In this document: positions 14,609-58,770 of the stretch, piece by piece
Position numbering within the stretch: the stretch's first letter is position 1
Layout of the letters: every line of letters starts with the position of its first letter
Assembly (NCBI GenBank): GCA_043821445.1
Contig: JBDRCT010000013.1
Coordinates: forward strand, 82,149-146,148
DNA from: Candidatus Omnitrophota bacterium
GTDB taxonomy: Bacteria > Omnitrophota > Omnitrophia > Omnitrophales > Aquincolibacteriaceae
Direction: 5' to 3'
Length of the DNA: 64,000 nt
Translations under genes and position numbers: made by a program
Notes under the pieces: model-generated
The model's input: the letters and a program-made list of their open reading frames with translations, nothing else
The model's database searches: none
Told to the model about the DNA's origin: nothing

Positions 14609-14674
14609 TGCGCACAACGTGCAGGGCGCAACGCTCCCTTTTGTTTTGTTGTGCGTTGAGCGTTGCGCGTTGCG
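14609..14674. repeat. CAACG/CGTTG-rich palindromic intergenic element, copy 1, filling the gatB-tsaD spacer exactly
   Basis: gcgcacaacgtgcagggcgcaacgctccc-ttttgttttgtt-gtgcgttgagcgttgcgcgttgcgc; similar elements at 24781 and 58701. Confidence 0.5.
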
Positions 14675-16177
14675 CTAACTCGCGAGTTTTTTCTGGAGGA
14701 TTTCATTGACGATCTTCGGATTCGCTTTCCCCTGCGTCTCTTTCATCACCGCGCCGACAAGAGCGCCGAGGGCCTTTTGTTTCCCGGTCTTGAACTCCGC
14801 GACCGCGGCGGGGTTCGCGGCGATGGCCTTCTCGACCGCCTTCTCGATCAACCCCGTGTCCGAGACTTGCGTAAGGCCTTTTTCTTTGACGATCGCTTCC
14901 GCGGCCTTGCCGGTCGCCGCCATCTCCTGAAGTACGTCCTTGGCAGTCTTTCCGCTCAAGGTCCCCTGTTCGACAAGACGGATCAGCCCTGCAAGCGCGT
15001 GCGGTGAGACGGAGCAATCCTCGATCGCAATATTTTTCGCGTTCAAGAGGGCGAGAAGCTCGTTCTGAACCCAGTTGCTCGCGAGTTTAGCGGGGGCCCC
15101 TTCGCGAACACAGGACTCAAAATATCCCGCGAGTTTCTTCTCCTGCACCAGCACATAGGCGTCATATTCCGGAATGCCGAATTCCCTGATGAACCGCTTC
15201 GCGCGTTCAAGCGGCAACTCGGGCAAAGTCTTGCGGACCTCTTCGACGGTCTCGCGGGTGAGCGTGAACGGGACAAGATCCGGCTCCGGGAAATAGCGGT
15301 AATCATGGGCTTCTTCTTTGGAGCGCATGGAAAACGTCGTGCCTTTGGCATCATTCCAAAGCCGCGTTTCCTGGACGATCGTTTCCCCGTTCTTGAGCGC
15401 TTCGGTCTGCCGCTCAATTTCATACTGAATGGCTTTTTGCACCATCTTAAAAGAATTCAGGTTCTTGATCTCGACCTTGGTGCCTAATTTTTCCTGGCTC
15501 ACGGGCCGCACCGACACGTTCGCGTCACAGCGAAGGCTCCCCTTTTCCATATCACAGTCGCTCACTTCCAGATATTGAAGAATAGCCTTTAGCGCGGTGA
15601 GGTAATCGTAAGCCTCCTGCGGGCTCCCGAGGTCCGGCTCGGAAACGATCTCAAGAAGCGGAATGCCGCCCCGGTTATAATCCACCAGGCTCCCGTCCGC
15701 AATGCCTTCATGAAGGAGTTTTCCCGCGTCCTCTTCCAGATGCGCGCGTGTGATGCCGATCCGTTTTAAGACCACGGACGACAGACCACAGTCTACAGCC
15801 CCTGCTTTTTCCTTTTTTGCTGCGGTCTTCGGTCTGCAGTCTGCAGTCTGGGTTTCGATATCGACGAAACCTTTACCGTTCACCGGCATGTCAAATTGCG
15901 AGATCTGGTAGGCCTTGGGAAGGTCCGGATAAAAATAATTCTTCCGGTCGAATTTGAGCCGCTCCGCCACCTTGCAATTGAGCGCAAGCCCGACCCGTAT
16001 CGCAAGCTTCAAGGCCGCTTCGTTTAGGACCGGCAACGATCCCGGCCAGCCAAGACACACCGGACACGTATGCTTGTTCCCCTCCGCTCCAAACTCCGTG
16101 GAGCATGAGCAGAAGAGCTTCGACTTCGTTTTCAGTTGTACGTGGACCTCAAGCCCAATGACGGGTTCGTAGTTCAT
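14675..16177 (-). CDS. gatB: Asp/Glu-tRNA amidotransferase subunit B
   Basis: MNYEPVIGLEVHVQLKTKSKLFCSC...; full-length GatB with a ~25-aa palindromic in-frame insert (15781-15860); ATG has no SD. Confidence 0.9.
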   Translation of the reverse strand: MNYEPVIGLEVHVQLKTKSKLFCSCSTEFGAEGNKHTCPVCLGWPGSLPVLNEAALKLAIRVGLALNCKVAERLKFDRKNYFYPDLPKAYQISQFDMPVNGKGFVDIETQTADCRPKTAAKKEKAGAVDCGLSSVVLKRIGITRAHLEEDAGKLLHEGIADGSLVDYNRGGIPLLEIVSEPDLGSPQEAYDYLTALKAILQYLEVSDCDMEKGSLRCDANVSVRPVSQEKLGTKVEIKNLNSFKMVQKAIQYEIERQTEALKNGETIVQETRLWNDAKGTTFSMRSKEEAHDYRYFPEPDLVPFTLTRETVEEVRKTLPELPLERAKRFIREFGIPEYDAYVLVQEKKLAGYFESCVREGAPAKLASNWVQNELLALLNAKNIAIEDCSVSPHALAGLIRLVEQGTLSGKTAKDVLQEMAATGKAAEAIVKEKGLTQVSDTGLIEKAVEKAIAANPAAVAEFKTGKQKALGALVGAVMKETQGKANPKIVNEILQKKLAS

Positions 16178-16293
16178 AAACTAGTACGGGGTACGGAGTA
16201 CGGCGTCTCGCGTTCTTTTTTCATGTGCGCCGCACACCTTCCGCCTCTCGCAGTTTTCCGGACTTCAAGTCCAATGACCGGTTCGCAATTCAT
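16174..16293 (-). CDS. 39-codon bridging ORF whose first 11 codons are a diverged duplicate of the gatB start (MNCEPVIGLEV...)
   Basis: ATG overlaps the TGA of the 341-aa ORF (ATGA) and its TGA overlaps the gatB ATG (ATGA); 28/33 nt identical to gatB 5' end, 4 of 5 substitutions synonymous. Confidence 0.4.
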   Translation of the reverse strand: MNCEPVIGLEVRKTARGGRCAAHMKKERETPYSVPRTSL

Positions 16294-17315
16294 ATTTTTT
16301 CACCATCAACCAGCAACTTCTTCTTTGAAGATTTCCCTCTTTTCTTTGACATTTCCAGAAGCCACTGATCAACATACTTGATTAAACTGCAACCAGCCCT
16401 TGCCACCTCGTTAAAATATCGCGTTGTTTGGATATGACTGATAGTTAGTTTTGTTCCCACTTTGAGTCTTGTCTTGTTTTTGTCCTTATATTCAGAGTCG
16501 ATAATACCGCCCCGATGAGCAATTAAATGCCGAATGCTTTCCATTCTTTTTAAAACAGTCCCATCTTGAAATGCTGTATTCAGGAAGTCTTCATCGCTCT
16601 TAGAGCCTATCCTAATAGCCTTGTAAGCTTTTCTCATACCCTTCAAGCTCGTAAAATCAAACTTCTCGGACAGCAATGCTCCCAAGTATTTCTTGATATT
16701 AAAATCATACTTTGATAGAAGCCCAACGCTAAACCCCTTCTTTGTAATCTTGTCTTCATCCTCATCTTTATCTGTTGCGCCCAACACCTTTTCAACCAAC
16801 AGAGTTGGGTTAGCATTAACCATTAAAATCCAGGCGTCTTTCACCAGCGATTCGAACGCTACCCAACTATTCATCACGCCAGATAAATACAGCGCTCGTA
16901 TCGCTGTTTTAAGCTTTTGATCTTTTTTGATTTTTTGATCTAGGCTACGAAAAGCCGCATCGATCACATCTTCCTTTGTAAAACCTTTTTGTTTTTGAAT
17001 TTTTTCGATTTCTTCTTTTAAGAAACTATTATTTTGCTCCTCAGAATCTTTGTTTCTTCTTGGAAAACTGCGTACCTCAGCTAACGTTTGTATTGCGAAA
17101 TGTTGAATTTCATAAGATGCTAGCGTAGAAAAATGCAGGGGCAGCATTTCCAGACTTAAGACATCTTCTAAGTTAACTGAGAAAGCCTTAGCAGCCCCGC
17201 GCAAAGCTTTTGATTGAATGCCGGCAACAACAGCTTCAATTTCATCGCTAACAATTTCTGTTTTCCTTCCTATAGACAAATAATGTCTCCGCACCACGCT
17301 TTGTGCTTTCTCCAT
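16290..17315 (-). CDS. Hypothetical 341-aa protein, AT-rich; possible HEPN-type (Rx4H) nuclease domain
   Basis: Motif MESIRHLIAHRGG (R-[NH]-x3-H as in Abi_2/RiboL-PSP HEPN families) near the C-terminal third; Lys/Glu-rich, much lower GC than flanks. Confidence 0.5.
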   Translation of the reverse strand: MEKAQSVVRRHYLSIGRKTEIVSDEIEAVVAGIQSKALRGAAKAFSVNLEDVLSLEMLPLHFSTLASYEIQHFAIQTLAEVRSFPRRNKDSEEQNNSFLKEEIEKIQKQKGFTKEDVIDAAFRSLDQKIKKDQKLKTAIRALYLSGVMNSWVAFESLVKDAWILMVNANPTLLVEKVLGATDKDEDEDKITKKGFSVGLLSKYDFNIKKYLGALLSEKFDFTSLKGMRKAYKAIRIGSKSDEDFLNTAFQDGTVLKRMESIRHLIAHRGGIIDSEYKDKNKTRLKVGTKLTISHIQTTRYFNEVARAGCSLIKYVDQWLLEMSKKRGKSSKKKLLVDGEKI

Positions 17316-17640
17316 ATTTTTTATGCCCCCATAAAAGTATGTATAAAGTAGGTGTCCTCCGCCATAAAACTTTGGCGGACAAGTGCAGCTGGACGCCCTA
17401 TAAAGTAGGCGTCCTACAACTGAACACCCTACGTATTTTCTTCCAATATTTCCGTCGACGGAAATATTGGCCGGTCACTTCGATTCATCGGACGTCCGAT
17501 AAATCTACCGAACGCCCAATTCTCAATTTTTCCGCATGCGGAAAAATCTGCCGAGACCCTCAACCCTTCAATTTTCCCGCATGCGGGAAAATCTGCTGCT
17601 TATCCCAATTTCCCCACATGCGGGGAAATCGTTCTGCACC
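17316..17640. repeat. Array of different perfect palindromes (28, 14, 20, 22, 20 nt) and CCCAATT + hairpin modules upstream of the 341-aa ORF
   Basis: ccaatatttccgtcgacggaaatattgg (17443-17470), atcggacgtccgat (17487-17500), tttttccgcatgcggaaaaa (17527-17546), attttcccgcatgcgggaaaat (17571-17592), tttccccacatgcggggaaa (17609-17628); direct repeat tataaagtaggYgtcct at 17342 and 17399. Confidence 0.65.
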
Positions 17641-17644
17641 TCAG

Positions 17645-17851
17645 CTATAAGCTATGGCCTTTGCCGTACTTCGCGTCTTCTTCACGGACAAGGTCGAATG
17701 CCTTGGCCGCGGCGTCAAACCGGTCGGAAAAATCGATCCGCTCCTCCCTCATCTTCGCCATCAGAAGCTCGTGATACTTGGTCCGGAGGGCATGGACCTT
17801 TTCCTTGGCGTGCGGCTCTTCCTCAGATATCTCCCGCTCCGCCTTGACCAA
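17645..17851 (-). CDS. Small hypothetical ORF (68 aa) inside the island
   Basis: ORF only; helical, charged; no recognizable motif. Confidence 0.3.
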   Translation of the reverse strand: MVKAEREISEEEPHAKEKVHALRTKYHELLMAKMREERIDFSDRFDAAAKAFDLVREEDAKYGKGHSL

Positions 17852-17883
17852 ATCTGTATAAATTCTTGCGATCTCAAGAACCG

Positions 17884-18114
17884 TTATAGCTCACCATGTG
17901 CGATCCGTATGGCGATCCGGGTCGCATGCTCTCTGTCCTTGTACTTGATCCCCTGTTTCTTGAGCAATTCAATGAATTTCCAGCGCAGGTCGATCTGCTT
18001 CTCCTCGAGAACCTGTAATTCCTCGGGGTTTGTCGTTTTTTCGATCTTTTCGATCACTTCAACATATTTTTTGGCTACGAGATACAGGTTATTCGTCATT
18101 ACTTCAGTCTCCAT
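17884..18114 (-). CDS. Small hypothetical ORF (~76 aa from METEV...) inside the island
   Basis: Ends ...KDREHATRIAIRIAHGEL (an Rx6H-G tail); start trimmed to METEV because the track start overlaps repeat cluster B. Confidence 0.35.
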   Translation of the reverse strand: METEVMTNNLYLVAKKYVEVIEKIEKTTNPEELQVLEEKQIDLRWKFIELLKKQGIKYKDREHATRIAIRIAHGEL

Positions 18115-18120
18115 GTAAAA

Positions 18121-18262
18121 ACGGACGTCCTGCAACAGAACAATTCATTCCCAATTGTTCGGCATGCCTTCCTAACCCTTCGATTTTGCCGCATGCGGCA
18201 AAATTCATTCCCAATTTCCTGGCCCGCCGGGCAATTCATCCGCTTGACAAAGGAATTAGCGG
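18121..18262. repeat. Second array of CCCAATT + palindrome modules between the RhuM-Fic gene and the small ORFs
   Basis: ggacgtcc, caattcattcccaatt-gttcGGCATGCC, attttgccgcatgcggcaaaat (22-nt perfect palindrome, 18183-18204), aaattcattcccaatt-tcctGGCCCGCCGGGC. Confidence 0.65.
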
Positions 18263-18266
18263 CCTA

Positions 18267-19241
18267 TCAGCCTAACAAATTCAAGATCACTTTAGTCATG
18301 ACATCTTTTTCGGATGCTTTGCTGGCCGCGACCATCAAGGTCAATGCCACAAGGGCATTGTCATCGATCCGCCGAGTTCCATCCTTACACAAGAGAATGC
18401 CATTTCTCTGCAGAAAACAGACGAACAACGCCGCAGCGATCCGCTTATTCCCGTCCACAAAGCTGTGGTTCTTGGTCACGAAGTACAAAAGATGCGCGGC
18501 TTTTTCCTCGACTGTCGGATACACGTCCTTGCCGCCGAAGGTCTGATAAACAGCTCCGATGGAACTTCGGAAACCAGCGTCCTTTTCCCTGCCCACGAGC
18601 GCCGAATCATGAAACTTCTTTTTCATGGTCTCGATGATCTTTCGGGCTTCTTCATAAGTCAGTTCGAATCTGGCTTTTTTTGTCCCCTTGGGTTTTGAGA
18701 GCTTTTCGTGGTCAAAATCGTCGAGGATGTCCAACGCACGGGAATACTCCGTAATTACCTGGGCGATCCCTGCCGCTTCTGGAGCCAAGCCTTCGACCGC
18801 CGCGACATTCCCGATAAGAGCTATCGCCTTTCGAAGTTCCAGGTATTTGCCTTGAGCCGCCCGTAACCTCTTTTCGTTAAGGGTATATCCCTCGATCAAA
18901 TGCTTTTTCAGCACCTGAGTGGCCCAAATCCGGAATTGCGTTCCCCTCTTGGAATTGACCCGATAACCAACGGAAATGATCATATCGAGGTTATAAAATG
19001 TTACGGGTTTATCGGAGTTAGCAATGTGCATTTTTTGCACATTGCTTTTTTGCTCTAATTCCCCCGTATTGAATATGTTATGAATATGCTTCGTAATAAC
19101 ACTCCGTTCTATTTCGAAAAGTTCGGACATTTGTTTTTGCGTAAGCCAAACAGTGTCCTTATCAAGACGGACCTCAAATCGATCCTTATAGAGGATGACC
19201 TCTCCGCCCTTTACTTCGTTATTATTTTCAAGGCCGCTCAT
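18267..19241 (-). CDS. RhuM-family N-terminal domain fused to Fic/Doc (death-on-curing type) domain
   Basis: N-term VWLTQKQMSELF...FYNLDMIISVGYRVNSKRGTQFRIWATQ (RhuM); C-term HSFVDGNKRIAAALF (Fic/Doc HxFx[DN]GNKR motif); ATG overlaps gatA TGA. Confidence 0.8.
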   Translation of the reverse strand: MSGLENNNEVKGGEVILYKDRFEVRLDKDTVWLTQKQMSELFEIERSVITKHIHNIFNTGELEQKSNVQKMHIANSDKPVTFYNLDMIISVGYRVNSKRGTQFRIWATQVLKKHLIEGYTLNEKRLRAAQGKYLELRKAIALIGNVAAVEGLAPEAAGIAQVITEYSRALDILDDFDHEKLSKPKGTKKARFELTYEEARKIIETMKKKFHDSALVGREKDAGFRSSIGAVYQTFGGKDVYPTVEEKAAHLLYFVTKNHSFVDGNKRIAAALFVCFLQRNGILLCKDGTRRIDDNALVALTLMVAASKASEKDVMTKVILNLLG

Positions 19242-20698
19242 AATTGAGGCTTCCGCTTGTAAAATTCCGTTTCCTGCTCAAAGGCGTGGGCGGCGCGGAG
19301 CATGGTGGATTCGTCGAACGGACGGGCCATGAGCTGCATGCCGATGGGAAGACCGCCGCTTGTGAATCCGCACGGGACCGACATCGCCGGAATTCCCGCC
19401 AGGTTCGCCGGGATCGTAAAAATATCAGACAAGTACATCGCAATCGGGTCCGCGGCCTTCTCACCGATCTTGAACGCCGCGGTGGGCGACGTAGGCGAAA
19501 GGATCACATCCACTTCTTTAAACGCCTTTTCGAAATCTTGGCGGATGAGCGTGCGGACCTTCTGCCCTTTCAGGTAATACGCTTCGTAATAACCGGCCGA
19601 GAGGACAAAGGTGCCGAGCAGAATGCGGCGTTTCGCCTCCTGTCCGAACCCACGGTCGCGTGTCTCAAAATACATCTCGCGAAGATCTTTCGCATGGACC
19701 CTCAAACCGTATTCCACGCCGTCAAAGCGGCCGAGGTTTGAACTCGCCTCCGCCACGGCGACAATATAGTAAACAGCGACCGAATACTCCGTGTGCGGAA
19801 GACTGATCGTCCTGATCTCGGCGCCGAGCTTCTTATAGATCTCCGCGGCCTGGTGCACGCTTTTTTCGATCTGAGGATCGATCCCCGCGATGAAATATTC
19901 TTTCGGGAGACCGATCTTAAGACCCTTCACATTGCGCGTGAGCGCCTGCGTAAAATCCGGAACGTTCTCGGGCGAAGAAGTGGAATCCTTCGGATCATGA
20001 CCGCACAGGATATTCATCAGAATGGCCGCATCTTCCACGGTTTTGGTGAGAGGACCGATCTGGTCAAAGCTGGAGCCGAATGCGATAAGCCCGTAGCGCG
20101 ACACGCGTCCGTAGGTGGGTTTCACGCCGACCACGCCGCAAAGTGCCGCGGGTTGACGGATCGAACCGCCGGTATCGGACCCCAAAGCCGCAACCGTCAT
20201 GTCCGCCGCGACTGAAGCCGCCGAGCCGCCGCTGGAGCCGCCCGGCACGCGCTCCAGGTCCCAGGGATTCCGGCACGGACCGAACGCGGAAGTCTCACAG
20301 GAGGAACCGAACGCGAATTCATCCATGTTGCACTGCCCGAAAAGCGTCGCGCCCGCATTTTTAAGTTTCGTGATCACGGTCGCATCGTAGGGGGGCACGT
20401 GCTTCGCCAGGATCTTCGACGCGCAGGTCACTTCCCTGCCATCAATGCAAATGTTGTCCTTGATGGAGATGGGAACGCCGTAAAGCGGCCCTTTACCAAT
20501 CACCCTGCGTGTCGCACTGCGTAAGTCTGATTCATCACCGTTATCCAGTGCAATGGGATGATCCGAGCGTAGAAACGCATTTATTTTCGGATTCAGGGCT
20601 TTGACGCGTTTTTCGAAAGCTTTAAGAATGGTCGGCGGGCCGACTTGTTTAGAGATCCCGATCGCTTCTTTGAGAGTCAGAGAACAGAGGTCGGTCAT
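19238..20698 (-). CDS. gatA: Glutamyl-tRNA(Gln) amidotransferase subunit A
   Basis: Amidase signature GGSSGGSAASVAA, 486 aa. Confidence 0.9.
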   Translation of the reverse strand: MTDLCSLTLKEAIGISKQVGPPTILKAFEKRVKALNPKINAFLRSDHPIALDNGDESDLRSATRRVIGKGPLYGVPISIKDNICIDGREVTCASKILAKHVPPYDATVITKLKNAGATLFGQCNMDEFAFGSSCETSAFGPCRNPWDLERVPGGSSGGSAASVAADMTVAALGSDTGGSIRQPAALCGVVGVKPTYGRVSRYGLIAFGSSFDQIGPLTKTVEDAAILMNILCGHDPKDSTSSPENVPDFTQALTRNVKGLKIGLPKEYFIAGIDPQIEKSVHQAAEIYKKLGAEIRTISLPHTEYSVAVYYIVAVAEASSNLGRFDGVEYGLRVHAKDLREMYFETRDRGFGQEAKRRILLGTFVLSAGYYEAYYLKGQKVRTLIRQDFEKAFKEVDVILSPTSPTAAFKIGEKAADPIAMYLSDIFTIPANLAGIPAMSVPCGFTSGGLPIGMQLMARPFDESTMLRAAHAFEQETEFYKRKPQL

Positions 20699-20976: not shown

Positions 20977-21003
20977 CGGGCCTCCTTTAAACAGATGGCG
21001 ACA

Positions 21004-24555: not shown

Positions 24556-24765
24556 CTACTCAGGCCGGGAACAGCAACTGCCCTTGACGCCGAACTTCTT
24601 CAGGATGATCTCGGCAAGGCACCAGCCGGTAAACGCGGACTGAACGAGATTTACGCCGATGAGCGTGGTCCAGATCAGCCACCAAGGGCTTACCCAGATC
24701 GCGAGCGCGACGCTCATGAGAATAAAAGTCCCCGCGATGATACGAATGTATTTTTCCATGGTCAT
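24556..24765 (-). CDS. DUF2892 (YgaP-like) small membrane protein
   Basis: 69 aa, RIIAGTFILMSVALAIW...GWCLAEIILKKFG. Confidence 0.55.
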   Translation of the reverse strand: MTMEKYIRIIAGTFILMSVALAIWVSPWWLIWTTLIGVNLVQSAFTGWCLAEIILKKFGVKGSCCSRPE

Positions 24766-24780
24766 AGTTTTCTCCTTAGC

Positions 24781-24863
24781 TCAACGTGCGACGCGCAACG
24801 CGCAACGTTTTTTTACTTGGTTTTTTACGTTGTGCGTTGCCCGTTGAGCGTTGCGCTTTTTTT
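24781..24863. repeat. CAACG/CGTTG-rich palindromic element, copy 2; right arm encodes the last 11 aa + stop of the RND pump
   Basis: tcaacgtgcgacgcgcaacgcgcaacg-tttttttacttggtttttta-cgttgtgcgttgcccgttgagcgttgcgc-ttttttt. Confidence 0.5.
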
Positions 24864-27800
24864 AGCCATCATGTAATAAAAGACAGGTACGGCTGTGCGC
24901 GAAAGAAGGGTCGACGCAATTTCTCCTGCCATCAAAGCCACCGCCAATCCCTGAAAGATCGGATCGAACAGGATCACGGAAGCTCCGACCACCACCGCCG
25001 CGGCGGTCAGAAGCATGGGCCGGAACCGTTGCACGCCCGCTTCGATCACCGCTTCTTCAAGCGGCATACCGTCCGCGCGTTTCAATTCGATAAAATCCAC
25101 CAGGATAATAGAATTACGGACCACGATCCCTGCACCCGCGATCATCCCGATCATCGACGTCGCGGTAAAGAACACACCTCCGAGCCAGTGTGCCGGCAAA
25201 ATGCCGATCAGCGTGAGCGGGATCGGTAGCATAATGATCCACGGCGTCTTGAACGACTGGAACCAGCCGACCACCAGGACGTAGATCAAAAGCAGAACAA
25301 ACGCAAATGCTATCCCCAGATCGCGGAACACTTCGAAGGTGATCTGCCACTCCCCGTCCCACTTGAGGGTCCAACGGTCTGTCGCGGACGGCTGGCCGTT
25401 GAAAAGCTGATCGAGCGTTTTCTGGCCTTCATGGTTTTCCGGTGCCGGCATCTTCGCGATATTCTTTTTGAGTTTCAGGATCGCGTAAGCCGGGCTCTCG
25501 AATTTGCCTCCCACGTCCGCGATCACATAGGAAACCCGCATGAGATTTTTGTGATAGATCGCACGGTCCTTGAACCTATCCTGGATCTCCACAAGATCTT
25601 TAATCGGGATAGGGCTCCCGTAACGAGAAAGAAGCGTCATGTTGAGCACAGCATCCAGCGTCTTCCTTTTCTCCTCCGGCAACCTCACCAGGATCTCGAC
25701 CGGCTCATATTCACCGGAGAGATGCGCAAGATCCACGGCCTTTCCCCCGATCGCGGTCGTGATGGCCTCCGCGATGTGTGTCACAGGAATACCGTTCAGG
25801 GAAGCTTTTTGAGTGTTCACTTTCAGACTTGCCAGTTTTTCCTCGGCCTGAACATAGGTGTCGATGTCGGTGATATCTTTATCCTCGGAAAGCATTTTTT
25901 CGATCCGGCCAGTAAGCTCATTCTGTCCTTCCTGGGTCGGACCATAGACCTCAAGAACAAGGGTCGAAAGCACCGGCGGCCCCGGCGGAACCTCGGCTAC
26001 TTGAACGTGCCCGCCATATTTTTTCACGATTTCATGGACTTTCGGCCGCACGGCTTTGGCGATATCATGACTTTGACGCTTACGGTCATGCTTGCCCGCC
26101 AAATTCACCTGAAGGTCCGCTTGGTGCGGTTTGGAGCGCAGGAAATAATGACGCACGAGCCCGTTAAAGTTATAAGGGGCCGCCGTCCCCACGTACATTT
26201 CAATGTCCTTCACCTCCGGGACCGTGACCAGATAATCCGCGATCTCCGTGATCGCAGCCTGAGTCCGGGCCTTGGGCGTTCCTTCCGGCATATTGAGGAC
26301 CACTTGGAACTCATTTTTATTATCAAAGGGAAGCATTTTCATCCGGACAAGTTTCAAGGGCACCAGCATCACGACTGCTAAAAGAAGGATCCCCAGCGCC
26401 CAAAGGAATTTTTTACGGATCTTCGGGTTATGGATCAAAGGATTCATGTATGAGCGGTAAAGACGCGTCAGGAAATCCTCTTTTTCGCCTTCATGATGGA
26501 CCTTGAGCTTGCCCTGAGCGAACGCCCGGCCCAGGATCTGATAAGCGGCCCACGGTGTCGCCACGAACGCCACGAACATCGAGAACATCATGGCTGCGCT
26601 CGCCCCAATCGGAATGGGGCGCATATAGGGTCCCATAAGACCGCGCACGAAGGCCATAGGAAGGATCGCCGCGATCACCGTGAGCGTCGCGAGGATCAAA
26701 GGGCTCCGGACTTCGTTGACGGCCTCGATCGTGACATCCAGGATGTTCTTGCCCTTGTTCTCAGGCATCCGGAGATGACGGACAATGTTCTCTACGTCCA
26801 CGATCGGGTCATCGACCAGGATCCCGATGGAAAATATAAGCGCAAAAAGTGTGATGCGGTTCAGCGTAAACCCGAGAAAATAGAACGTCGCAAGCGTGAG
26901 CGCGAGCGTCATCGGGATCGCGATCGCCACCACGCCCGCCTCCCGGCTCCCGAGCGCCCAGGCGATCAAGAGACTGACCCCGAATACCGCGATCCCCATA
27001 TGAAACAAAAGTTCGTTGGATTTTTCCTTGGCCGTTTCGCCGTAGTCACGTGTCACGGTCATCTGGACGTCCTTGGGAATCACTGCTTCGGGTATTTTTT
27101 TGATCGTATGGAGGATCACGTCCGACAAATGAGCGGCGTTCGCTCCCTTGCGCTTGGAAATGGCGAGCGTCACCGCATCGAAGGGCCCCTTTTTTTGATC
27201 CTTGGCGGCCGGGCCAAAAAGGATCTGCGTCGAGCGTTCTTCCTGATCGGGACCGTCCACAATTTGCGCGATATCCTTAAGCATTACGATGTTTCCGGCG
27301 TTCACTCCGACCACAAGGTTTTCAAGGTCCGACTTTGTTTTGAAGAAAGAGTTCGCCTCCACCGATTCCAGCGCCGGTTCGCTTTCCAAATGGCCGGCAT
27401 TCTGTTTCACATTTGCGGCGCGTATCAACTGCCCGATCTCAAGAGGATTCAAAAGCCTCGCTTTTAATTCTTCCTCATCAAAAAAGACCTGAAATTGCCG
27501 CTTGCGACCACCCGTGATGTGCGTTCTCGAAACTTCGGGAATCGCATTCACGATATTTTGAAGATGGGCCACGGTCCTGCGTAGCGCCATCGGGTCCTGC
27601 TTTTCACTATGGAACGTAAGCGTCAGGATGGGCACGTCGTCGATCGATCGGACTTTGATGAGCGGCTGCGTCGCACCCTCGGGAAGAAAATCGAGATTGG
27701 AATGGACCTTGGTGTAGAGCTTGATCAGGCTTCTTTCGACATCTTCCCCCACTTTGAACCGGACAATGATCAGTGCGCCTTCGGGCTCGATCGTGGAATA

Positions 27801-28064
27801 GATGTACTCCACGCCCGGGATCTCCCAAAGTTTCCGTTCCCCGAGATTCACGATCCTTTGCTCGACTTCTTTGGAATCCGCGCCGGGATAAGAGACGAAA
27901 ATATCGAACATCGGCACCGAGATCTGGGGTTCTTCTTCGCGGGGAAGGTTCATGACCGCAAAAAGTCCGATGATGAACGACGCCGCGATAATCAGCGGTG
28001 TGATCTTCGACTTCGCGAAGTAGCTGACAGTACTGCTGATCAAGTCGGAGTGGTGGGTTTTCAT
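24825..28064 (-). CDS. RND efflux transporter permease (AcrB/CzcA superfamily)
   Basis: 1079 aa, 12-TM RND architecture. Confidence 0.9.
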   Translation of the reverse strand: MKTHHSDLISSTVSYFAKSKITPLIIAASFIIGLFAVMNLPREEEPQISVPMFDIFVSYPGADSKEVEQRIVNLGERKLWEIPGVEYIYSTIEPEGALIIVRFKVGEDVERSLIKLYTKVHSNLDFLPEGATQPLIKVRSIDDVPILTLTFHSEKQDPMALRRTVAHLQNIVNAIPEVSRTHITGGRKRQFQVFFDEEELKARLLNPLEIGQLIRAANVKQNAGHLESEPALESVEANSFFKTKSDLENLVVGVNAGNIVMLKDIAQIVDGPDQEERSTQILFGPAAKDQKKGPFDAVTLAISKRKGANAAHLSDVILHTIKKIPEAVIPKDVQMTVTRDYGETAKEKSNELLFHMGIAVFGVSLLIAWALGSREAGVVAIAIPMTLALTLATFYFLGFTLNRITLFALIFSIGILVDDPIVDVENIVRHLRMPENKGKNILDVTIEAVNEVRSPLILATLTVIAAILPMAFVRGLMGPYMRPIPIGASAAMMFSMFVAFVATPWAAYQILGRAFAQGKLKVHHEGEKEDFLTRLYRSYMNPLIHNPKIRKKFLWALGILLLAVVMLVPLKLVRMKMLPFDNKNEFQVVLNMPEGTPKARTQAAITEIADYLVTVPEVKDIEMYVGTAAPYNFNGLVRHYFLRSKPHQADLQVNLAGKHDRKRQSHDIAKAVRPKVHEIVKKYGGHVQVAEVPPGPPVLSTLVLEVYGPTQEGQNELTGRIEKMLSEDKDITDIDTYVQAEEKLASLKVNTQKASLNGIPVTHIAEAITTAIGGKAVDLAHLSGEYEPVEILVRLPEEKRKTLDAVLNMTLLSRYGSPIPIKDLVEIQDRFKDRAIYHKNLMRVSYVIADVGGKFESPAYAILKLKKNIAKMPAPENHEGQKTLDQLFNGQPSATDRWTLKWDGEWQITFEVFRDLGIAFAFVLLLIYVLVVGWFQSFKTPWIIMLPIPLTLIGILPAHWLGGVFFTATSMIGMIAGAGIVVRNSIILVDFIELKRADGMPLEEAVIEAGVQRFRPMLLTAAAVVVGASVILFDPIFQGLAVALMAGEIASTLLSRTAVPVFYYMMAKKSATLNGQRTT

Positions 28065-48243: not shown

Positions 48244-48250
48244 AAACTCC

Positions 48251-52856: not shown

Positions 52857-53686
52857 GCCGCCCCCCTGTAAGCCATGGCCGCATAACCCACGACAGAACT
52901 CCTTTCCCCCGTGACATCTCCCGAATTCGCGTACCGGATCAGATGAGGACCTGACCATTTCATTTTCCTGGCCAGCAGGATCGAAGTCAGAACAGGCCCC
53001 ATGCCGCAGGCTTCAGCCTCCTCCCTGACATAAGCATCATAGATCGCTTCGGCATTCCCTTTTTCGAACAGAGCGATCAAAGCCTTGTCTTTTCCGGACG
53101 CTGCTTCATAAGAATAAAAGTGGGAAAGATCCGTGGTCGCCACCACAAGTAAGTTCCGACCCGCGAGGATCTTGGTTAAAGCCTCCGCGAGGATCGTGCT
53201 GTTTGTGATCTCCTGAATGCCGATGTAGACGGGAACGATCTTAAGGCCGGGGACCGTTTCTTGGAGGAATGGGATCTGGACCTCCAGGGAATGTTCTTCA
53301 AGCCGGTCGGGCATCGTATTTTGAAAAATGGGATGGAACATCCGGATCTCCCGGGCAAGTTCACGATTTACGGGAACACGGCCCAGTGGCGTTTCATAAG
53401 CGGCGACATCGTCTACGAACACGCCTTGCAAGAACAGTCGATGGAGAAAGGCGATAATGATCACGCTGTCGAATGTTCGCCCTTCGACCAATTTGTAGGC
53501 CTCGGCCGCGATCTGCCCCGAGTAGTCATAACCTGCGTGTGGGACGATCAGAGCCCGGACATCCGGGGCAGGAGTGCCCTTGGCTTCGGTTAAGAACCGC
53601 CGGACCTTTTTTTTGAGGAGTTCGGGCCCTTCGGGATAGAATTGTCCGCTCACCACCGCTGCACGGACTTTTTCCTGGACATTCAT
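52850..53686 (-). CDS. AmmeMemoRadiSam system protein B (MEMO1 family)
   Basis: ALIVPHAGYDYSG, TDLSHFY. Confidence 0.8.
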   Translation of the reverse strand: MNVQEKVRAAVVSGQFYPEGPELLKKKVRRFLTEAKGTPAPDVRALIVPHAGYDYSGQIAAEAYKLVEGRTFDSVIIIAFLHRLFLQGVFVDDVAAYETPLGRVPVNRELAREIRMFHPIFQNTMPDRLEEHSLEVQIPFLQETVPGLKIVPVYIGIQEITNSTILAEALTKILAGRNLLVVATTDLSHFYSYEAASGKDKALIALFEKGNAEAIYDAYVREEAEACGMGPVLTSILLARKMKWSGPHLIRYANSGDVTGERSSVVGYAAMAYRGAAC

Positions 53687-53821
53687 ACCTGTCCCTCAGC
53701 TTAAAGTTCCGAGGTTATTCTACACCCAAAAAAGACCGGGAAAACCCTTAAAATTTTAAGCGAGGGATGTCTGGAATTCGGCGTGACCCCGTATTATAAT
53801 TTAAGAAAAGAGAGGCCTCCC

Positions 53822-54886
53822 ATGGAAAGTAAAATCCTTAATTCCGTCAAGATCGCGTTCTTTGATGCCAAACCCTACGACATTGAGTCTTTTGATGATG
53901 CGAATAAGAATTTTGGGGGTAAGATCACCTATTTCAAAAACCATCTTACGCTCGAGACTGCTTCTCTGACCCAAGGTTTTCAGGTCGTTTGTGTTTTCGT
54001 AAACGATAATGTCCAAAAAGATGTCATCGAGATCCTGGCCCAAAACGGGGTCCGGCTTATCGCGATCCGTGCCGCCGGATACAATAATCTCGACTTGAAA
54101 GCTCTCTTCCAGAAGATCCACACCGTCCGTGTCCCGGCTTATTCCCCCTACGCCGTAGCCGAACACGCGGTCGCCCTCATGCTGGCTCTGAACCGCAAAG
54201 TCCACCGGGCCTATTACCGAACCCGCGATAGTAATTTCACATTGAACGGTTTGTTAGGCTTTGACATGCATGGGAAAACCGCGGGCGTCATCGGCACGGG
54301 AAAGATCGGAAAGGTCTTGATCGAGATCCTCAAAGGTTTTGGGATGCGCATCCTGGCTCACGATACCTTTCCTGACCCGGAGTATCAGAAAAAAACGGGG
54401 TTCGAGTACGTAGACCTCGATACCCTTTACAAAAATTCCGACATTCTTTCACTCCATTGCCCGCTCACGAAGGAAACCTACCATTTGATCGACGAGACGA
54501 GTATCTCGAAAATGAAACAAGGCGTGATGATCATCAACACGAGCCGGGGCATGCTGATCGATTCCAAAGCTCTCATCAAGGGGCTCAAAACAGGCAAGAT
54601 CGGCTTCGCAGGCCTGGACGTTTACGAGGAAGAAAGCGATTATTTCTTTGAAGATTTTTCCAACAAAGTCATCACAGACGACGTCCTCGCTCGCCTCCTC
54701 TCTTTTAATAATGTGGTCATCACGTCGCATCAAGGATTTTTCACCCGGGAGGCACTTCGGAATATCGCGTCCACCACGCTTGAAAACGTCCGGGAATTTT
54801 TCACGGAAGGGAAAATACCGAATGAGATCTGTTACAAGTGTTCCACGAGTTCATGTCCGCGCAAAACCACAGGAAAGTGTTTTTAA
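53822..54886 (+). CDS. ldhA: D-lactate / D-2-hydroxyacid dehydrogenase
   Basis: GVIGTGKIGKV NAD motif, catalytic RGxxID...H triad region; start MESKILN. Confidence 0.85.
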   Translation: MESKILNSVKIAFFDAKPYDIESFDDANKNFGGKITYFKNHLTLETASLTQGFQVVCVFVNDNVQKDVIEILAQNGVRLIAIRAAGYNNLDLKALFQKIHTVRVPAYSPYAVAEHAVALMLALNRKVHRAYYRTRDSNFTLNGLLGFDMHGKTAGVIGTGKIGKVLIEILKGFGMRILAHDTFPDPEYQKKTGFEYVDLDTLYKNSDILSLHCPLTKETYHLIDETSISKMKQGVMIINTSRGMLIDSKALIKGLKTGKIGFAGLDVYEEESDYFFEDFSNKVITDDVLARLLSFNNVVITSHQGFFTREALRNIASTTLENVREFFTEGKIPNEICYKCSTSSCPRKTTGKCF

Positions 54887-54901
54887 TCAAAGGAGTCTTT
54901 T

Positions 54902-55255
54902 ATGAAGCGATCTTCAGGATCTTCAGCCGCCCGGCCCGGAAATTTCACCGGCATGACGCTTGCGATCGCAAGCTTGGTGGAGTATCAGGCACATTCGGTC
55001 GTCAGCAAGCAGATCCTAAGCAAAAAAACGGGATCGCTTACGCTCTTCGCCTTCGATAAAGGCGAAGGTTTAAGCGAACACACCGCGCCTTACGATGCGT
55101 CGGTCCTTATCCTCGACGGAAAAGCCACGATCATGATCGATGGAAAACCGCACAAACTGGAGAAAGGCGAGATGATCATCATGCCCGCGGGCGTCCCGCA
55201 TTCGCTCAAAGCCGCTAAACCTTTCAAAATGCTCCTCATCATGATCCGGTCTTGA
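54902..55255 (+). CDS. Cupin domain protein
   Basis: 117 aa, GEMIIMPAGVPHS. Confidence 0.6.
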   Translation: MKRSSGSSAARPGNFTGMTLAIASLVEYQAHSVVSKQILSKKTGSLTLFAFDKGEGLSEHTAPYDASVLILDGKATIMIDGKPHKLEKGEMIIMPAGVPHSLKAAKPFKMLLIMIRS

Positions 55256-55308
55256 ACCCGGATAAATAGCCGGACGATTTCGGTGCTTTATTTTCCGTTT
55301 GAGCTGTG

Positions 55309-55348
55309 AAAAAAAAAAGGGCGAACCGGCCCTTAAGCCAGTTCGCCC
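55309..55348 (-). terminator. Rho-independent terminator for the 55400-55936 gene
   Basis: Plus strand a9-GGGCGAAC-cggcccttaagcca-GTTCGCCC; on minus strand stem-loop then U9. Confidence 0.7.
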
Positions 55349-55399
55349 CACCTTCCCGAAGAGTTTTGACGTTTATTGCCTTATCAAACTTTATCTGCC

Positions 55400-55936
55400 C
55401 TAACGCCCTTTTTTTCGATCGGGACTTGCTCCGGGACCGCCCTTAGGACCCGGGGGATTTTCCCAGTTGGTCCCCGGACCACCTTTGGATCCAGGAGGAT
55501 TATTGTCCTTGTCCCTTTTGCCGGCCATTTTCTTTTCTTTTCTGTCTACAACGCCATTGTTATTCCGGTCAACCCGTTCTTTCCGGAGTTCCTTTTTAGC
55601 ATCACCCAGTTCTTTCCTGTCCTGATGTCTCTCCTGGGCATTTTCCTTATATATCGTTTGCAACTGCGCCTGGAGTTCCTTGACCTTCGCGGTATCTCCG
55701 GCTGCCTCAGCCTCCTTGATCTGTTTTTTCAGACTCTTCCCTTCCGTCCGAGCGGCTTGAGCGTGGGTCTTCATCTCTGCCTTCTGGGCTTTGATCGCTT
55801 CTTTGTCCGCCGCGAGCTCCTCCTTTTTAAGACCCGGCGCCGTGGAAGCGCCACTCTCTTCCGCATGGACCTTTGCGGCACAGAGCAAGGAACCGCAGAA
55901 AATAACCGCCACAAACACCCACAGCATCTTTCTCAT
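55400..55936 (-). CDS. Secreted Lys/Glu/Ala-rich low-complexity protein (hypothetical)
   Basis: Signal peptide MRKMLWVFVAVIFCGSLLCAAKVHA; coiled-coil-like KE repeats, Gly/Pro tail. Confidence 0.45.
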   Translation of the reverse strand: MRKMLWVFVAVIFCGSLLCAAKVHAEESGASTAPGLKKEELAADKEAIKAQKAEMKTHAQAARTEGKSLKKQIKEAEAAGDTAKVKELQAQLQTIYKENAQERHQDRKELGDAKKELRKERVDRNNNGVVDRKEKKMAGKRDKDNNPPGSKGGPGTNWENPPGPKGGPGASPDRKKGR

Positions 55937-56043
55937 GCTAGTTTCTCCTTTTTAAAAAAGTTGACCGCTATCAAATTCCGACCGCGTTCATTTTATACCT
56001 TAGAAAACTATCGGGCAAGCATTCAAAAAATCTCCAAGCCGCT

Positions 56044-56601
56044 CTAAAACTGGATCTTAACATCTGCGGTTTCTTCCTTCGGGATTTCGAGCATGGAGCG
56101 GCGCGCGTACCCCATCGAATTCGCTACAAAAACGTCAGGCATTTGCTGGATACGGATATTGTAGATATTGACACTTTCGTTGAAAAACTCGCGACGGTCC
56201 GCGATCTCGTTCTCAAGCCCTGAGATGCGGCCCTGAAGCTGAAGAAAACTCGCATTCGCCTTAAGGTCCGGGTAGTTCTCGGAGACCGCGAAAAGAGTTT
56301 TGAGCCCCGCCGTGAGCTGATTCTCCGCTTTGGTTTTGTCTTCGATCGAGGTCGCGTTCATAAAAGCCGTCCGCGCCTGCGTGATCTTCTCGAGCACGGA
56401 TTGCTCGTATTTCATATAACCCTTGCAGGTCTCGATCAGCTTCGGCAATTCGTCATGCCGCTGCTTCAGAAGCACATCAATATTCGCCCACGCCTTATCC
56501 ACATTGTTCCGTACCTGGATCAGGCCGTTGTAGATCCCGACAAAATACCCGATAAGCCCGAGCACCACAAAAACCGCTACCGCCAGAACCACAAGTTCCA
56601 T
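56044..56601 (-). CDS. lemA: LemA family protein
   Basis: N-terminal TM + LemA consensus (ADRREFFNESVNIYNIRIQQMP). Confidence 0.8.
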   Translation of the reverse strand: MELVVLAVAVFVVLGLIGYFVGIYNGLIQVRNNVDKAWANIDVLLKQRHDELPKLIETCKGYMKYEQSVLEKITQARTAFMNATSIEDKTKAENQLTAGLKTLFAVSENYPDLKANASFLQLQGRISGLENEIADRREFFNESVNIYNIRIQQMPDVFVANSMGYARRSMLEIPKEETADVKIQF

Positions 56602-56615
56602 GATCCCCTCCTTTT

Positions 56616-57389
56616 TTAAAACAGGTGTTTGAAAAAATGCCCGATCAGAATAAAAAGGCAGACGACGGTGAGAATGGGCCCCCCATAAAGGAAAAGATAC
56701 ATCCGCCCGCTGAATTCGCCAAGAACATGTTTTTCACTTTCACTTGAGAGAAGAAAGAAAGCGCCGGGCTGAGCCGCCACGCAAAGATTCTCAAACCCTT
56801 GCGCGGACCCCCGAACCACCGGATTCGGCTGCACCGTTCCGATCACATAAAGCTCGTCTCCCGGAACGATATACGCTTCTTCGCACCGGAGTTGTTTGCC
56901 AAAACCGAATGTTCCACTCGCCGCGATCCCCATGGAGTCCAGTTGCGCCAGGAACAAATTCTTATCTTTCGTGCCTATGCCGTTACTGTACTTACGATCC
57001 ATATGGACGTGAAGCTCGGCCCCGGCCGGACAAATGAGTACACGTCCCGTTTTATCTTCCAGATAGAAATACTCCGTGCTTGTGTGCTCCGCGAGCGTGA
57101 CCCAACTGCCACTTTTCCCGGAGCTTCTGTACTCTTCAACTTTATAGTGGTAAAAAACACACGGGGTTTTTGAAAAATCACTGGTCAAAAGCTTCTGGGA
57201 TTCCCGCGCCGTCCCGCTGACTTCCGCCAGTCCCAAGGCAAGGGCGCGAACGGTCGAAGTGGGAATATCCTCGATCAATTTTTTTCTCTTACGCAATTGG
57301 AATCCCCGGAAAAATCCCACGATGCCGAGCACAAAGCCCACACAAAGATACATGAAAAATTTTCCTTCGGAATCATCCGACGAACTCAT
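56616..57389 (-). CDS. Membrane protein co-located with LemA (two TM segments flanking a globular domain; possibly GIDE-like)
   Basis: TM at N- and C-termini; weak. Confidence 0.4.
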   Translation of the reverse strand: MSSSDDSEGKFFMYLCVGFVLGIVGFFRGFQLRKRKKLIEDIPTSTVRALALGLAEVSGTARESQKLLTSDFSKTPCVFYHYKVEEYRSSGKSGSWVTLAEHTSTEYFYLEDKTGRVLICPAGAELHVHMDRKYSNGIGTKDKNLFLAQLDSMGIAASGTFGFGKQLRCEEAYIVPGDELYVIGTVQPNPVVRGSAQGFENLCVAAQPGAFFLLSSESEKHVLGEFSGRMYLFLYGGPILTVVCLFILIGHFFKHLF

Positions 57390-57619
57390 GCAAGACCTCT
57401 TTCTGTTCCAACCTTTACAGGACCGATCTCCCCAGTGCCATTTCGAAGGCTATCGGCTATTTCGATAAAAACCTTCTATCTCCCGGCGGCCTCTATTTTC
57501 TCATAGGCAAACCATTAAAAACTAGTGCAGAATAGAGGCGTCCTGGTTCACTTTCGATCTTTACCAAAACCAGGACTGCATTGATCTTCGATTGAAAAAT
57601 TTATGGAGGATCAAGCGCT

Positions 57620-58699
57620 ATGGATCCGATCGTTCCGGCAAAATACTGGCATAAACTCGAAGACGGCAAGATCCAATGTGATCTTTGCCCTCGCCATTGC
57701 AAACTCGTGGAAAGTCAGCGGGGGTTTTGTTTTGTGCGCGCCTGCCAAAGTGGCCGGATCGTTCTCACTACCTACGGACGCTCGAGCGGTTTCTGCGTAG
57801 ATCCCATAGAAAAAAAACCTCTCTTTCATTTTCTTCCCGGCACGCCGGTCCTTTCTTTCGGCACGGCCGGCTGCAACCTGGGCTGTAAATTCTGCCAGAA
57901 TGCGGATATCAGCCATTCCCGGGAAATGGACACCCTCGCAGATTCCGCCTCGCCCGGGCTTATCGCGAAAACCGCCGAGAGACTCCGCTGCCGGAGCGTG
58001 GCCTTCACCTACAACGAGCCGCATATCTTCCATGAATACGCCGTCGACACGGCCAAGGAATGCCGCAGGCTCGGGATCAAAACGGTGGCCGTAACGGCAG
58101 GTTACGTGTGTGCCGAACCCCGGCAAGAGTTTTATGAGTGGATGGACGCGGCGAACGTGGACTTGAAGGGATTCACGGAAACATTCTACAAAAAATACAC
58201 GGATAGTTCTCTCGAACCCGTGCTTGAAACGCTTCTTTATCTCAAGAAAGAAACGAAGGTCTGGCTTGAGATCACCACGCTTCTTATTCCGGGTCTGAAT
58301 GATTCCGAAAAAGAACTGCAGGCTCTGACGTCCTGGATCGTCAAAAACTTAGGGCAGGACGTTCCTCTTCATTTCACGGCATTTCATCCCGCGTATAGGC
58401 TTTTGGAGCCTCCCCCGACCCCGGCCTCAACACTTCAAAAGGCCCGCGAGATCGCTCTCGCAAACGGAATCCGTTATGGTTACACCGGAAATATCGAAGA
58501 TCCCGAAGGCGAAACGACTTTTTGCCATGCCTGCGGCAAAAAACTGATGGGCCGGAGCAGTTATGAAATAACCGGCTGGCATTTGAAGGGAACCGGCCTT
58601 TGCGAATTTTGTGACACACTCTGCGCTGGAGTTTTTGAGCCCACCCCCGGAAACTGGGGATCCAAATGCCTGCCTGTCAGGCTTGGGGATTTTACCTGA
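57620..58699 (+). CDS. AmmeMemoRadiSam system radical SAM enzyme
   Basis: CDLCPRHCKL...GFC zinc-ribbon-like start then CNLGCKFCQN radical-SAM cluster motif; ~4 kb from AMMECR1/Memo. Confidence 0.8.
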   Translation: MDPIVPAKYWHKLEDGKIQCDLCPRHCKLVESQRGFCFVRACQSGRIVLTTYGRSSGFCVDPIEKKPLFHFLPGTPVLSFGTAGCNLGCKFCQNADISHSREMDTLADSASPGLIAKTAERLRCRSVAFTYNEPHIFHEYAVDTAKECRRLGIKTVAVTAGYVCAEPRQEFYEWMDAANVDLKGFTETFYKKYTDSSLEPVLETLLYLKKETKVWLEITTLLIPGLNDSEKELQALTSWIVKNLGQDVPLHFTAFHPAYRLLEPPPTPASTLQKAREIALANGIRYGYTGNIEDPEGETTFCHACGKKLMGRSSYEITGWHLKGTGLCEFCDTLCAGVFEPTPGNWGSKCLPVRLGDFT

Positions 58700-58700
58700 A

Positions 58701-58770
58701 ACCGTACTACGCGCAACGCGCAAGGCGCAACGTACGGTTTTTACGTCGAGCGTTGTGCGTTGAACTTTGC
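58701..58770. repeat. CAACG/CGTTG-rich palindromic element, copy 3, including a plus-strand terminator hairpin (accgtac...gtacggt + TTTTT)
   Basis: accgtac-tacgcgcaacgcgcaaggcgcaacg-tacggt-ttttt-acgtcgagcgttgtgcgttgaac; on the minus strand it encodes the last ~16 aa of the CYTH protein. Confidence 0.5.

Follow-up and report, generated by a model that had tools for sequence, protein, structure and literature searches.

A family of heptamer-built palindromes at gene ends in Omnitrophota, probably a dispersed REP-like repeat

Introduction

A stretch of 64,000 nucleotides from a Candidatus Omnitrophota bacterium (assembly GCA_043821445.1, contig JBDRCT010000013.1, positions 82,149 to 146,148; "the window" below means this whole stretch) carries three palindromic elements rich in CAACG and CGTTG, each at the 3' end of a gene. 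What kind of element is this, how did it come to lie there, and what does it do to the genes whose ends it covers? An earlier reading, made by a model from the letters and their open reading frames (ORFs) and called the sequence-only reading here, saw elements akin to repetitive extragenic palindromes (REPs) that double as terminators or mRNA-end structures and have been co-opted into coding sequence. Our data suggest that the three sites are probably, if by no great measure, copies of a dispersed, non-autonomous, imperfect-palindrome REP-like repeat of Omnitrophota.

Results

The same imperfect palindrome is present at all three places that the sequence-only reading had picked out (Table 1). 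On the plus strand each copy consists of tandem heptamers (NNCAACG)3-4, a T-rich core and then (CGTTGNN)3-4. The inverted arms had therefore been recognized correctly, but not the units: octamers and dodecamers had been proposed, and the 7-base periodicity was missed. All three copies have the polarity of the family on the minus strand, where the build is GCG(CAACGNN)x4, an A-rich loop that usually begins with TAAA, and (CGTTGNN)x4; copy 1 reads GCG CAACG CG CAACG CT CAACG CA CAACA / AAACAAAAGGGAG / CGTTG CG CCCTG CA CGTTG TG CGCAT. Such clustering is more than chance would give. In the window GCGCAACG is found 10 times against 3.2 expected, and eight of these occurrences are inside the elements; CGCAACGNNCAACG, with up to two mismatches allowed, matches 26 times against 6.8 expected, and every match with no or one mismatch falls within the three copies. 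Runs of CGTTG at 7-base spacing start only at 14654 (three units), 24828 (four) and 58751 (two), and the pentamer as such is of average frequency (57 occurrences, equal to the median pentamer). As to the host, the GatB protein encoded beside copy 1 has a counterpart with 100% identity in an NCBI Candidatus Omnitrophota metagenome-assembled genome (MAG), and its nearest 120 homologues are all from Omnitrophota.

Copies lodge in intergenic gaps of a few bases, at or on a stop codon. Copy 1 fills the gatB-tsaD spacer, as had been noticed. The claim that copy 2 encodes the end and the stop of the RND pump holds as well, with about 10 residues (SATLNGQRTT) in place of the 11 counted before: the 5' arm codes for these last residues, and the loop opens with the stop TAA (24825-24827). 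The neighbouring run at 24857-24863 consists of native Lys-Lys codons outside the element proper, and the ribosome-binding site of the ygaP-like gene comes immediately after the copy. That copy 3 encodes the tail of the CYTH protein was likewise borne out, since the ORF crosses nearly all of it (about 21 residues) and stops at a TAG (58707-58709) within the variant unit CGTAG. Where a copy covers the original stop, the upstream ORF continues to a stop of the element's own, which is the loop TAA, CGTAG or CGTTGAG. Predicted RNA folds of the minus and plus strands, respectively, are -28.9 and -34.2 kcal/mol for copy 1, -35.6 and -42.9 kcal/mol for copy 2, and -29.3 and -25.7 kcal/mol for copy 3.

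Gene calling suffers at copy 1. The 366-residue tsaD ORF (13606-14706) that runs through this copy is an over-extension, and public tsaD calls of 364-366 residues run upstream through a heptamer element in the same way (L001 11482-12576, L117 11458-12558; L numbers denote our genome loci). The extension arises because the arrays have no stop codon in that frame.

The three copies are members of a single sequence family, which has a polarity and in which both a variant unit and mismatches are conserved; in many genomes its copies occupy sites that are not orthologous. We scanned 185,579 species, each represented by one genome, with the pattern CAACGNNCAACG N{3,33} CGTTGNNCGTTG and found at least 114 loci, compared to a chance estimate of about 17-34 at uniform base composition. 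Among the matches listed, and judging by record title, 45 loci are from Verrucomicrobiota, 31 from Omnitrophota or Omnitrophota-like organisms, 4 from Lentisphaerota and 1 from Planctomycetota, together 71%; many of the 33 loci from other groups are ordinary GC-rich hairpins of 2+2 units. A further 37 copies from about 15 Omnitrophota MAGs align to a single polar consensus, 5'-GCG CAACG CT CAACG G(G/T) CAACG C(A/G) CAACG-loop-CGTTG YG CGTTG CG CGT(C/A)G (T/A)A CGTTG CGC-3', with an A-rich loop of 4-30 bases that usually starts with TAAA; 4+4 units is the commonest form. Unit order and conserved mismatches are common to these 37 copies. The variant unit CGT[A/C]G[T/A]A is confined to one arm and present in about 13 of the 37, from at least 8 genomes, and the copies at L057 and L086 have the left arm of window copy 2 between unrelated flanks. 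Several genomes are multi-copy, with at least 9 loci in the MAG ELA295, at least 3-4 in five others, and three in the 64-kb window. The sequence-only reading would have fallen had no further copies existed; they do exist.

Most copies are accompanied by a long ORF with its stop at -7 to +9 bases of the outer edge of the element, or at the loop TAA. The orientation of the loop relative to the gene is mixed (about 60:40). A strict orientation can be dismissed on this ground, and also because L054 carries the element of the window's RND site inverted. A phage-borne element was considered and rejected, as 2.9 million viral contigs contained 2 matches. A search of the window with Rfam 15 matched only a tRNA (10126-10196), leaving the heptamer elements without a covariance-model match and ruling out a known Rfam RNA family. 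In the literature, our search met no account of these elements in Omnitrophota or Verrucomicrobiota, and the unit sequences turned up only as fragments of unrelated sequences, so that the family has apparently not been described before. It is a REP-like element common in the PVC (Planctomycetota-Verrucomicrobiota-Chlamydiota) group of bacteria.

The verrucomicrobial arrays (loci L003-L112, for example L012 390-478 and L047 4659-4749) often have GAAAACG...CGTTTTC ends and lie just upstream of long ORFs. The ORF context of Verrucomicrobiota copies is too noisy for finer statements, because high GC content yields long stop-free frames. In two Verrucomicrobiota-type copies (L021 6685-6801, L100 884-959) one arm has grown to about 11-17 heptamers (CGTTGRG)n, a microsatellite-like length instability that was not seen in the 4+4 copies of Omnitrophota. 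The verrucomicrobial form is also found in MAGs labelled Akkermansia muciniphila.

After arrival, copies have gained or lost whole units, have been inverted in place or have decayed. We compared the window with the syntenic loci L001, L002, L117 and L118 (GatB 89-90% identical) and L054 (83%). At the gatB-tsaD junction the frame is the same throughout: the stop codon TAG, 4 units, an A-rich loop similar to AAAACAAAA, 4 units, and the flank YTAC. The units themselves differ. The window and L054 have CGCAACG, L001 has TACGGCG (four transitions away from the unit of the window), L117 has TCCGGAG, and L002 and L118 have CCACG/CCATG. In the genome that carries P0007, the spacer is only 13 bases long according to gene coordinates, and GatB there lacks an insert. 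At the RND 3' end, the window, L001 and L054 have a CAACG element, L002 has GGGGAAC units, and L117 is empty, its protein ending in MMAKKGEKP* and overlapping the start of ygaP. The L054 element (2818-2890) is that of the window (24780-24856) wholly inverted in arms, variant unit and loop, which turns the tail SATLNGQRTT* into SAT*.

Four unit types were found in five genomes upstream of the GHMP-kinase gene (GGATGGC in the window, GGGAACG in L001 and L002, CAGAC in L117, CAACG in L118), and a single one, TAAGCGN, at the hisG 3' end in all four genomes examined (window, L001, L002, L118). The CYTH 3' end has CAACG units in the window and GGATGGC units in L122, where the CYTH stop precedes the element. 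In L121 (560-760), the closest relative at this locus, the loop TAAAAACCGTA is kept and the cores have decayed to CGATG, CAATG and CGGCG; exactly 14 bases, or two units, of the 3' arm are lost, and the hairpin is largely destroyed.

A separate observation at the gatB-tsaD junction concerns L002, where two CCACG-type hairpins (11500-11560 and 11969-12030) stand around a gained, hypothetical membrane-like ORF of 101 residues.

The tails that result from read-through into an element are lineage-specific. The claim that the element rewrites C-termini thus stands up to a comparison of orthologues, which have different RND and CYTH tails or none. The element-encoded RND tail is SATLNGQRTT in the window and SATLNGQRST in L001; relatives end in KKGEKP* (empty site), RKNPGNVER* (other unit type) or SAT* (L054). 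CYTH homologues are conserved up to ..DSYSDQLL(K/R), after which 0 to about 60 variable residues follow that track the unit type; 42 of 113 homologues have at least 15 residues after DSYSD. The gatB gene of the window contains an element in frame, with left-arm units AGACTGC and right-arm units AGACCAC, which codes for QTADCRPKTAAKKEKAGAVDCGLSSVVL in place of KAADGKMIER in a surface loop (307 residues against 276 Pfam profile positions). The empty allele of this loop, IETKAADGKMIERKI, is seen in L118, and in 35 of 103 close homologues 3-29 extra residues, in many unrelated sequences, are inserted at this one position. We read the tails of RND and CYTH, as well as the insert in GatB, as probable by-products of the repeats rather than selected modules. 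The tails look incidental because they are hypervariable and because the element is inverted in L054 and decayed in L121, and the co-option proposed by the sequence-only reading finds no support on the same points. REPs have been described before that provide a stop codon or sit in frame within genes, and intragenic REPs are most numerous in the verrucomicrobium O. terrae (PMC3733652).

CAACG is not the only unit. GTACGGC, GGGAACG, CAGACCN, GGATGGC, TAAGCGN and CCACGNN occur in the same 4+4 frame with a period of 7. We screened 337 kb of Omnitrophota DNA for hairpins in which 5-base cores recur periodically, at 3+3 or more, and found 39 with a period of 7 (30 of CAACG and 9 of other units), none with a period of 6, 8, 9 or 10, and none in shuffled sequence. 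The 30 CAACG matches had been ascertained through the scan pattern; the 9 others had not. In every unit type, 4+4 is the commonest form. The window alone has at least five hairpins built alike from other units, one of them in frame in gatB, all of which the sequence-only reading missed; six of the eight tandem-unit hairpins of the window lie within 11.8-16.3 kb. The CAACG family belongs to a class of "4+4 heptamer palindromes" whose other units occupy similar sites.

Discussion

In the explanation that we favour, the element would be copied whole and would settle on stop codons in very short spacers, to be reshaped later by unit slippage, inversion and decay. Presence and absence at orthologous places support it, namely the empty RND-ygaP site of L117, the 13-base gatB-tsaD spacer of the P0007 genome and the empty gatB loop of L118. 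Because the asymmetry of the palindrome is conserved, the spread may be due either to a recombinase that recognizes the folded single strand or to template switching during replication; conserved mismatches would be expected of a hairpin whose two strands a protein must distinguish. In mRNA, a stem-loop of -26 to -43 kcal/mol could block exonucleases between cistrons or at the 3' end, in the style of REPs, or hinder ribosomes where they reach the stop codon. A canonical terminator it presumably is not.

Several observations weigh against a copied repeat of this kind. No transposase, Y1/RAYT, integrase or recombinase domain was detected among the approximately 66 ORFs of the window, and no RAYT or transposase between the element pairs in the genome fragments L061 and L039; the genes enclosed by such pairs are of the housekeeping kind. 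At the one pair of empty and filled alleles examined (RND site, L117 empty), no clear target-site duplication can be seen, an ambiguous AAG/AG being the most that the alleles allow. Within one genome the copies fall short of near-identity, which means that no burst has occurred recently. Moreover, the frame of a junction remains constant when the unit sequence differs between genomes that are about 90% identical in GatB, which is easier to reconcile with rewriting in place than with a series of independent insertions.

The pairing data count on the same side. In 29 full copies we found no covariation: 79.3% of cells were paired compared to 82.8% in column shuffles, with 500 of 500 shuffles at or above the observed value, and the covariation score was 0.040 against 0.073 in shuffles. 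The copies pair because the 5-base cores are conserved. These cores are almost invariant, and in 22-24 of the 29 copies the 2-base spacers do not pair at positions 9-52, 15-46 and 16-45. Mismatches show no strand bias (42 G-U, 56 A-C), neither strand folds consistently better, and z-scores are modest, since shuffled repeats fold too. A selected RNA hairpin is therefore rejected, and an RNA function, if there is one, has left no evolutionary signal here.

The main rival holds that the hairpins are immobile and are made and remade where they stand. Heptamer slippage would build and homogenize each arm, intrastrand template switching or inverted-repeat conversion would make the opposite arm and keep it up, and each gene junction would be an inverted heptamer microsatellite evolving on its own. 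We regard this as a minority prospect, albeit one to be taken seriously. It accounts better for unit turnover in a conserved frame: CGCAACG, TACGGCG or TCCGGAG units in the one gatB-tsaD frame, the four unit types upstream of the GHMP-kinase gene, and the inserts of many sequences at one GatB position in a third of the homologues. It also fits with units that resemble each other more within one arm than across the two (as in gatB), with length changes in multiples of 7, with CAGACC arrays that lie beside native GAGACC in gatB and in CYTH, and with the over-representation of heptamers and the position-conserved, sequence-variable inverted pairs in Xanthomonas (PMC4692102). It accounts less well for the recurrence of the same few unit types at unrelated sites in unrelated genomes, for the unit order, loop start and specific variant unit that the CAACG copies have in common, for CAACG arrays in four phyla, and for a unit number in Omnitrophota that is tightly centred on 4+4, which a free microsatellite would not be. 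Spreading by copying and remaking in place may both operate.

A bolder reading can be offered only tentatively, and we would sooner expect it to fail than to hold. In this reading the "4+4 heptamer palindromes" would form a class across the PVC group, defined by a strict 7-base period, an A-rich loop, conserved mismatches and interchangeable units, and rewritten like cassettes at fixed gene junctions and at the in-frame hot spot in GatB. If this were true, it would imply an enzyme system that recognizes and copies the geometry of a hairpin rather than its sequence, or else a new replication-linked mechanism that homogenizes the units within an arm and regenerates the opposite arm.

Alternatively, the arrays could be binding sites at the DNA level, with a protein conserved in the PVC group that reads the CAACG core at 7-bp spacing, head to head, the hairpin being incidental. 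Omega-type ribbon-helix-helix proteins do bind heptads. Near-invariant cores, free and unpaired spacers, pairing below the shuffled control, and a core that is common to Omnitrophota, Verrucomicrobiota, Lentisphaerota and Planctomycetota would all suit such a protein, for which no candidate was identified. However, at least seven other unit sequences with that frame coexist in these genomes and replace one another at the same sites, and no single protein can read all of them. An array within the gatB coding sequence and arrays that decay without consequence also argue against an essential site, and we consider the idea unlikely.

Slightly less likely still are intrinsic, possibly bidirectional terminators, which the sequence-only reading had seen in copy 3 in particular. 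The stems are GC-rich, stable and at gene 3' ends, copy 3 lies between convergent genes, the stem of copy 2 is followed by U7 on the plus strand, and a T-run follows the L002 element upstream of the GHMP-kinase gene. Yet none of the three copies has a U-tract after it on the sense strand. The U7 of copy 2 is antisense and stems from Lys codons that are present at the empty site too. Copies 1 and 2 stand between tightly linked co-directional genes (gatB-tsaD, RND-ygaP), with the next ribosome-binding site directly after copy 2, and the same kind of element lies in frame inside gatB. The terminator reading is therefore rejected.

That the encoded peptides are selected C-terminal or loop modules, truly co-opted, is very improbable: tails and insert are in frame, hydrophilic and persistent in several lineages, and the RND tails of the window and L001 are nearly identical, but CYTH tails are unrelated in sequence and track the unit type, RND tails in relatives are GEKP*, NPGNVER* or SAT*, Pfam domains end ahead of the tails, and two thirds of the GatB homologues do without any insert, the other third having unrelated ones.

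The closest known kinds of element are REP/REPIN sequences and the inverted heptameric repeats of Xanthomonas. REP/REPIN sequences (GTAG- or CGTC-tagged; Di Nocera 2013, PMC3733652) are likewise short, dispersed, imperfect palindromes at the 3' ends of co-directional or convergent genes. They too occur as several families per genome, have termini that can supply stop codons, include copies in frame in housekeeping genes, are known in the PVC group (O. terrae), and conserve the asymmetry of the hairpin (PMC3733652). The elements described here are, as REPs are, a dispersed multi-copy family mainly downstream of genes. The label REP-like thus fits their location, at gene 3' ends and on or next to stop codons, but not their build. 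They measure 70-85 bases, with 3-4 tandem heptamers per arm, whereas a REP has 20-40 bases and a unique stem of 6-13 bp. Neither arm is itself palindromic, so that they are not REP dimers either. An unpaired 5' GTAG/CGTC tag is absent: the outer ends are GCGCAACG and CGTTGCGC, and the CGTAG/CGTCG unit is inside the 3' arm, at the wrong end and in the wrong orientation for a REP-type tag. The RAYT gene, often flanked by REPs in REP systems, was not found among the window ORFs. Miniature inverted-repeat transposable elements derive from insertion sequences and have terminal inverted repeats and a target-site duplication; here the whole element is an inverted repeat.

Xanthomonas genomes contain inverted pairs of (GGGAATC)n heptamer simple sequence repeats, and heptamer repeats are also known from Nostoc and Calothrix (Rehm 2015, PMC4692102); that paper cites a 2007 report of heptamer over-representation. 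The Xanthomonas pairs are convergent inverted tandem heptamers in intergenic positions, 70-75 pairs per genome, and related species have the same junctions filled, with repeats that vary in length and sequence (PMC4692102). Both features recur here, the second at five sites (gatB-tsaD, RND-ygaP, hisG 3', pre-GHMP-kinase and CYTH 3'). For the 7-base unit, polymerase slippage has been invoked (PMC4692102). However, the Xanthomonas repeats are G-rich, capable of forming quadruplexes, 2-26 units long and of one unit type (PMC4692102), whereas our CGCAACG, GTACGGC and CAGACCN units lack G-tracts and offer no basis for a G-quadruplex. Also different are the narrow 4+4 form, the A-rich loop, the many unit types, the one family with a unit order and the overlap with coding ends.

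Three other kinds are less similar. Rickettsia palindromic elements are in-frame palindromic repeats in genes of conserved proteins, where they add 20-50 residues in surface loops. They are longer, unique in sequence, without heptamer periodicity and from another phylum; they are mentioned in PMC3733652. Intrinsic terminators share the GC-rich stem-loop at 3' ends, and differ in the sense-strand U-tract and in that our copies also lie within operons and a gene. The attC sites of integrons are folded imperfect palindromes right after stop codons, in which structure is conserved over sequence and mismatches are conserved. The verrucomicrobial units GYCCAAC / GTTGRRC fit RYYYAAC / GTTRRRY, which we take to be the integron core-site consensus. 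In contrast to attC sites, our elements adjoin syntenic housekeeping genes rather than cassettes, a setting that speaks against attC, and each arm is made of four contiguous units in place of R and L boxes; the consensus does not cover most of the units in Omnitrophota (GCGCAAC, GTACGGC and others), and the window ORFs contain no integrase domain.

The interest lies chiefly in a 4+4 frame with a strict 7-base period and in units that turn over at fixed sites, and turnover in an unchanged frame bears on how REP-like hairpins arise, spread and stay complementary. The elements lead to systematic mis-annotation in Omnitrophota and Verrucomicrobiota MAGs, with tsaD extended and with tails and inserts counted as protein. 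Unit number and type change fast and could serve as a strain-level marker. Akkermansia muciniphila is cultivable, and since MAGs labelled as this species have the element, mapping of transcript ends and genetics are feasible.

Other features of the window

Table 1. Coordinates, strand and surroundings of the repeat elements and neighbouring genes in the window
Feature	Coordinates	Strand	Context
Copy 1, CAACG family	14609..14674	-	fills gatB-tsaD spacer (70 bases); gatB stop adjoins
Copy 2, CAACG family, 4+4 units, loop TAAAAAACCAAGTAAAAAAA	24780..24856	-	between RND pump and ygaP-like genes
Copy 3, CAACG family	58701..58770	-	between convergent radical-SAM (+) and CYTH (-) genes
gatB	14675..16177	-	stop 14675-14677 abuts copy 1; Pfam GatB_N, GatB_Yqey
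tsaD	13606..14604	-	true ATG 14602-14604; N-terminus MLGIETSCDET; Pfam TsaD profile from residue 21 of 332-residue form
RND (resistance-nodulation-division, AcrB-family) pump	24825..28064	-	Pfam domain ends at residue 1066/1079, 13 residues before stop
ygaP-like small membrane protein gene	24556..24765	-	downstream of copy 2
Radical-SAM gene	57620..58699	+	ends 2 bases short of copy 3 start 58701
CYTH / class IV adenylate cyclase gene	58707..59288	-	domain ends 41 residues before stop; last ~21 residues from copy 3
CAGACYG x4 / AAAAAAGGAAAAAGCAGGG / CTGTNGN x4	15767..15850	-	in frame within gatB
GGATGGC-unit element	11849..11925	-	between 32-residue basic ORF and GHMP-kinase gene (upstream of latter)
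TAAGCGN-unit element	12062..12119	-	directly 3' of hisG
Octamer-unit hairpin TGTCAANG	13546..13607	-	directly 3' of tsaD; only non-heptamer example seen
GTACGGN, three heptamers	16183..16206	-	upstream of gatB; inverted partner weak

The GTACGGN run upstream of gatB is probably a decayed element. Between hisG and the GHMP-kinase gene, with a heptamer hairpin on either side, lies a very basic ORF of 32 residues (MPWARKQRKKKMNKHKRKKKLRKHRHKKKDWS, 11947-12045, minus strand). It is conserved, being called as a gene at the syntenic place in L117 and visible as coding sequence in L001, L002 and L118. Upstream of the gatB region, at 17443-17629, there is a non-coding cluster of perfect or near-perfect palindromes of a different kind, 22-28 bases long, which comprises CCAATATTTCCGTCGACGGAAATATTGG and three copies of ATTT(T/C)CCCGCATGCGGG(G/A)AAAT, 37-83 bases apart. 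Similar palindromes are found at the syntenic place in L118 (9577-10000).

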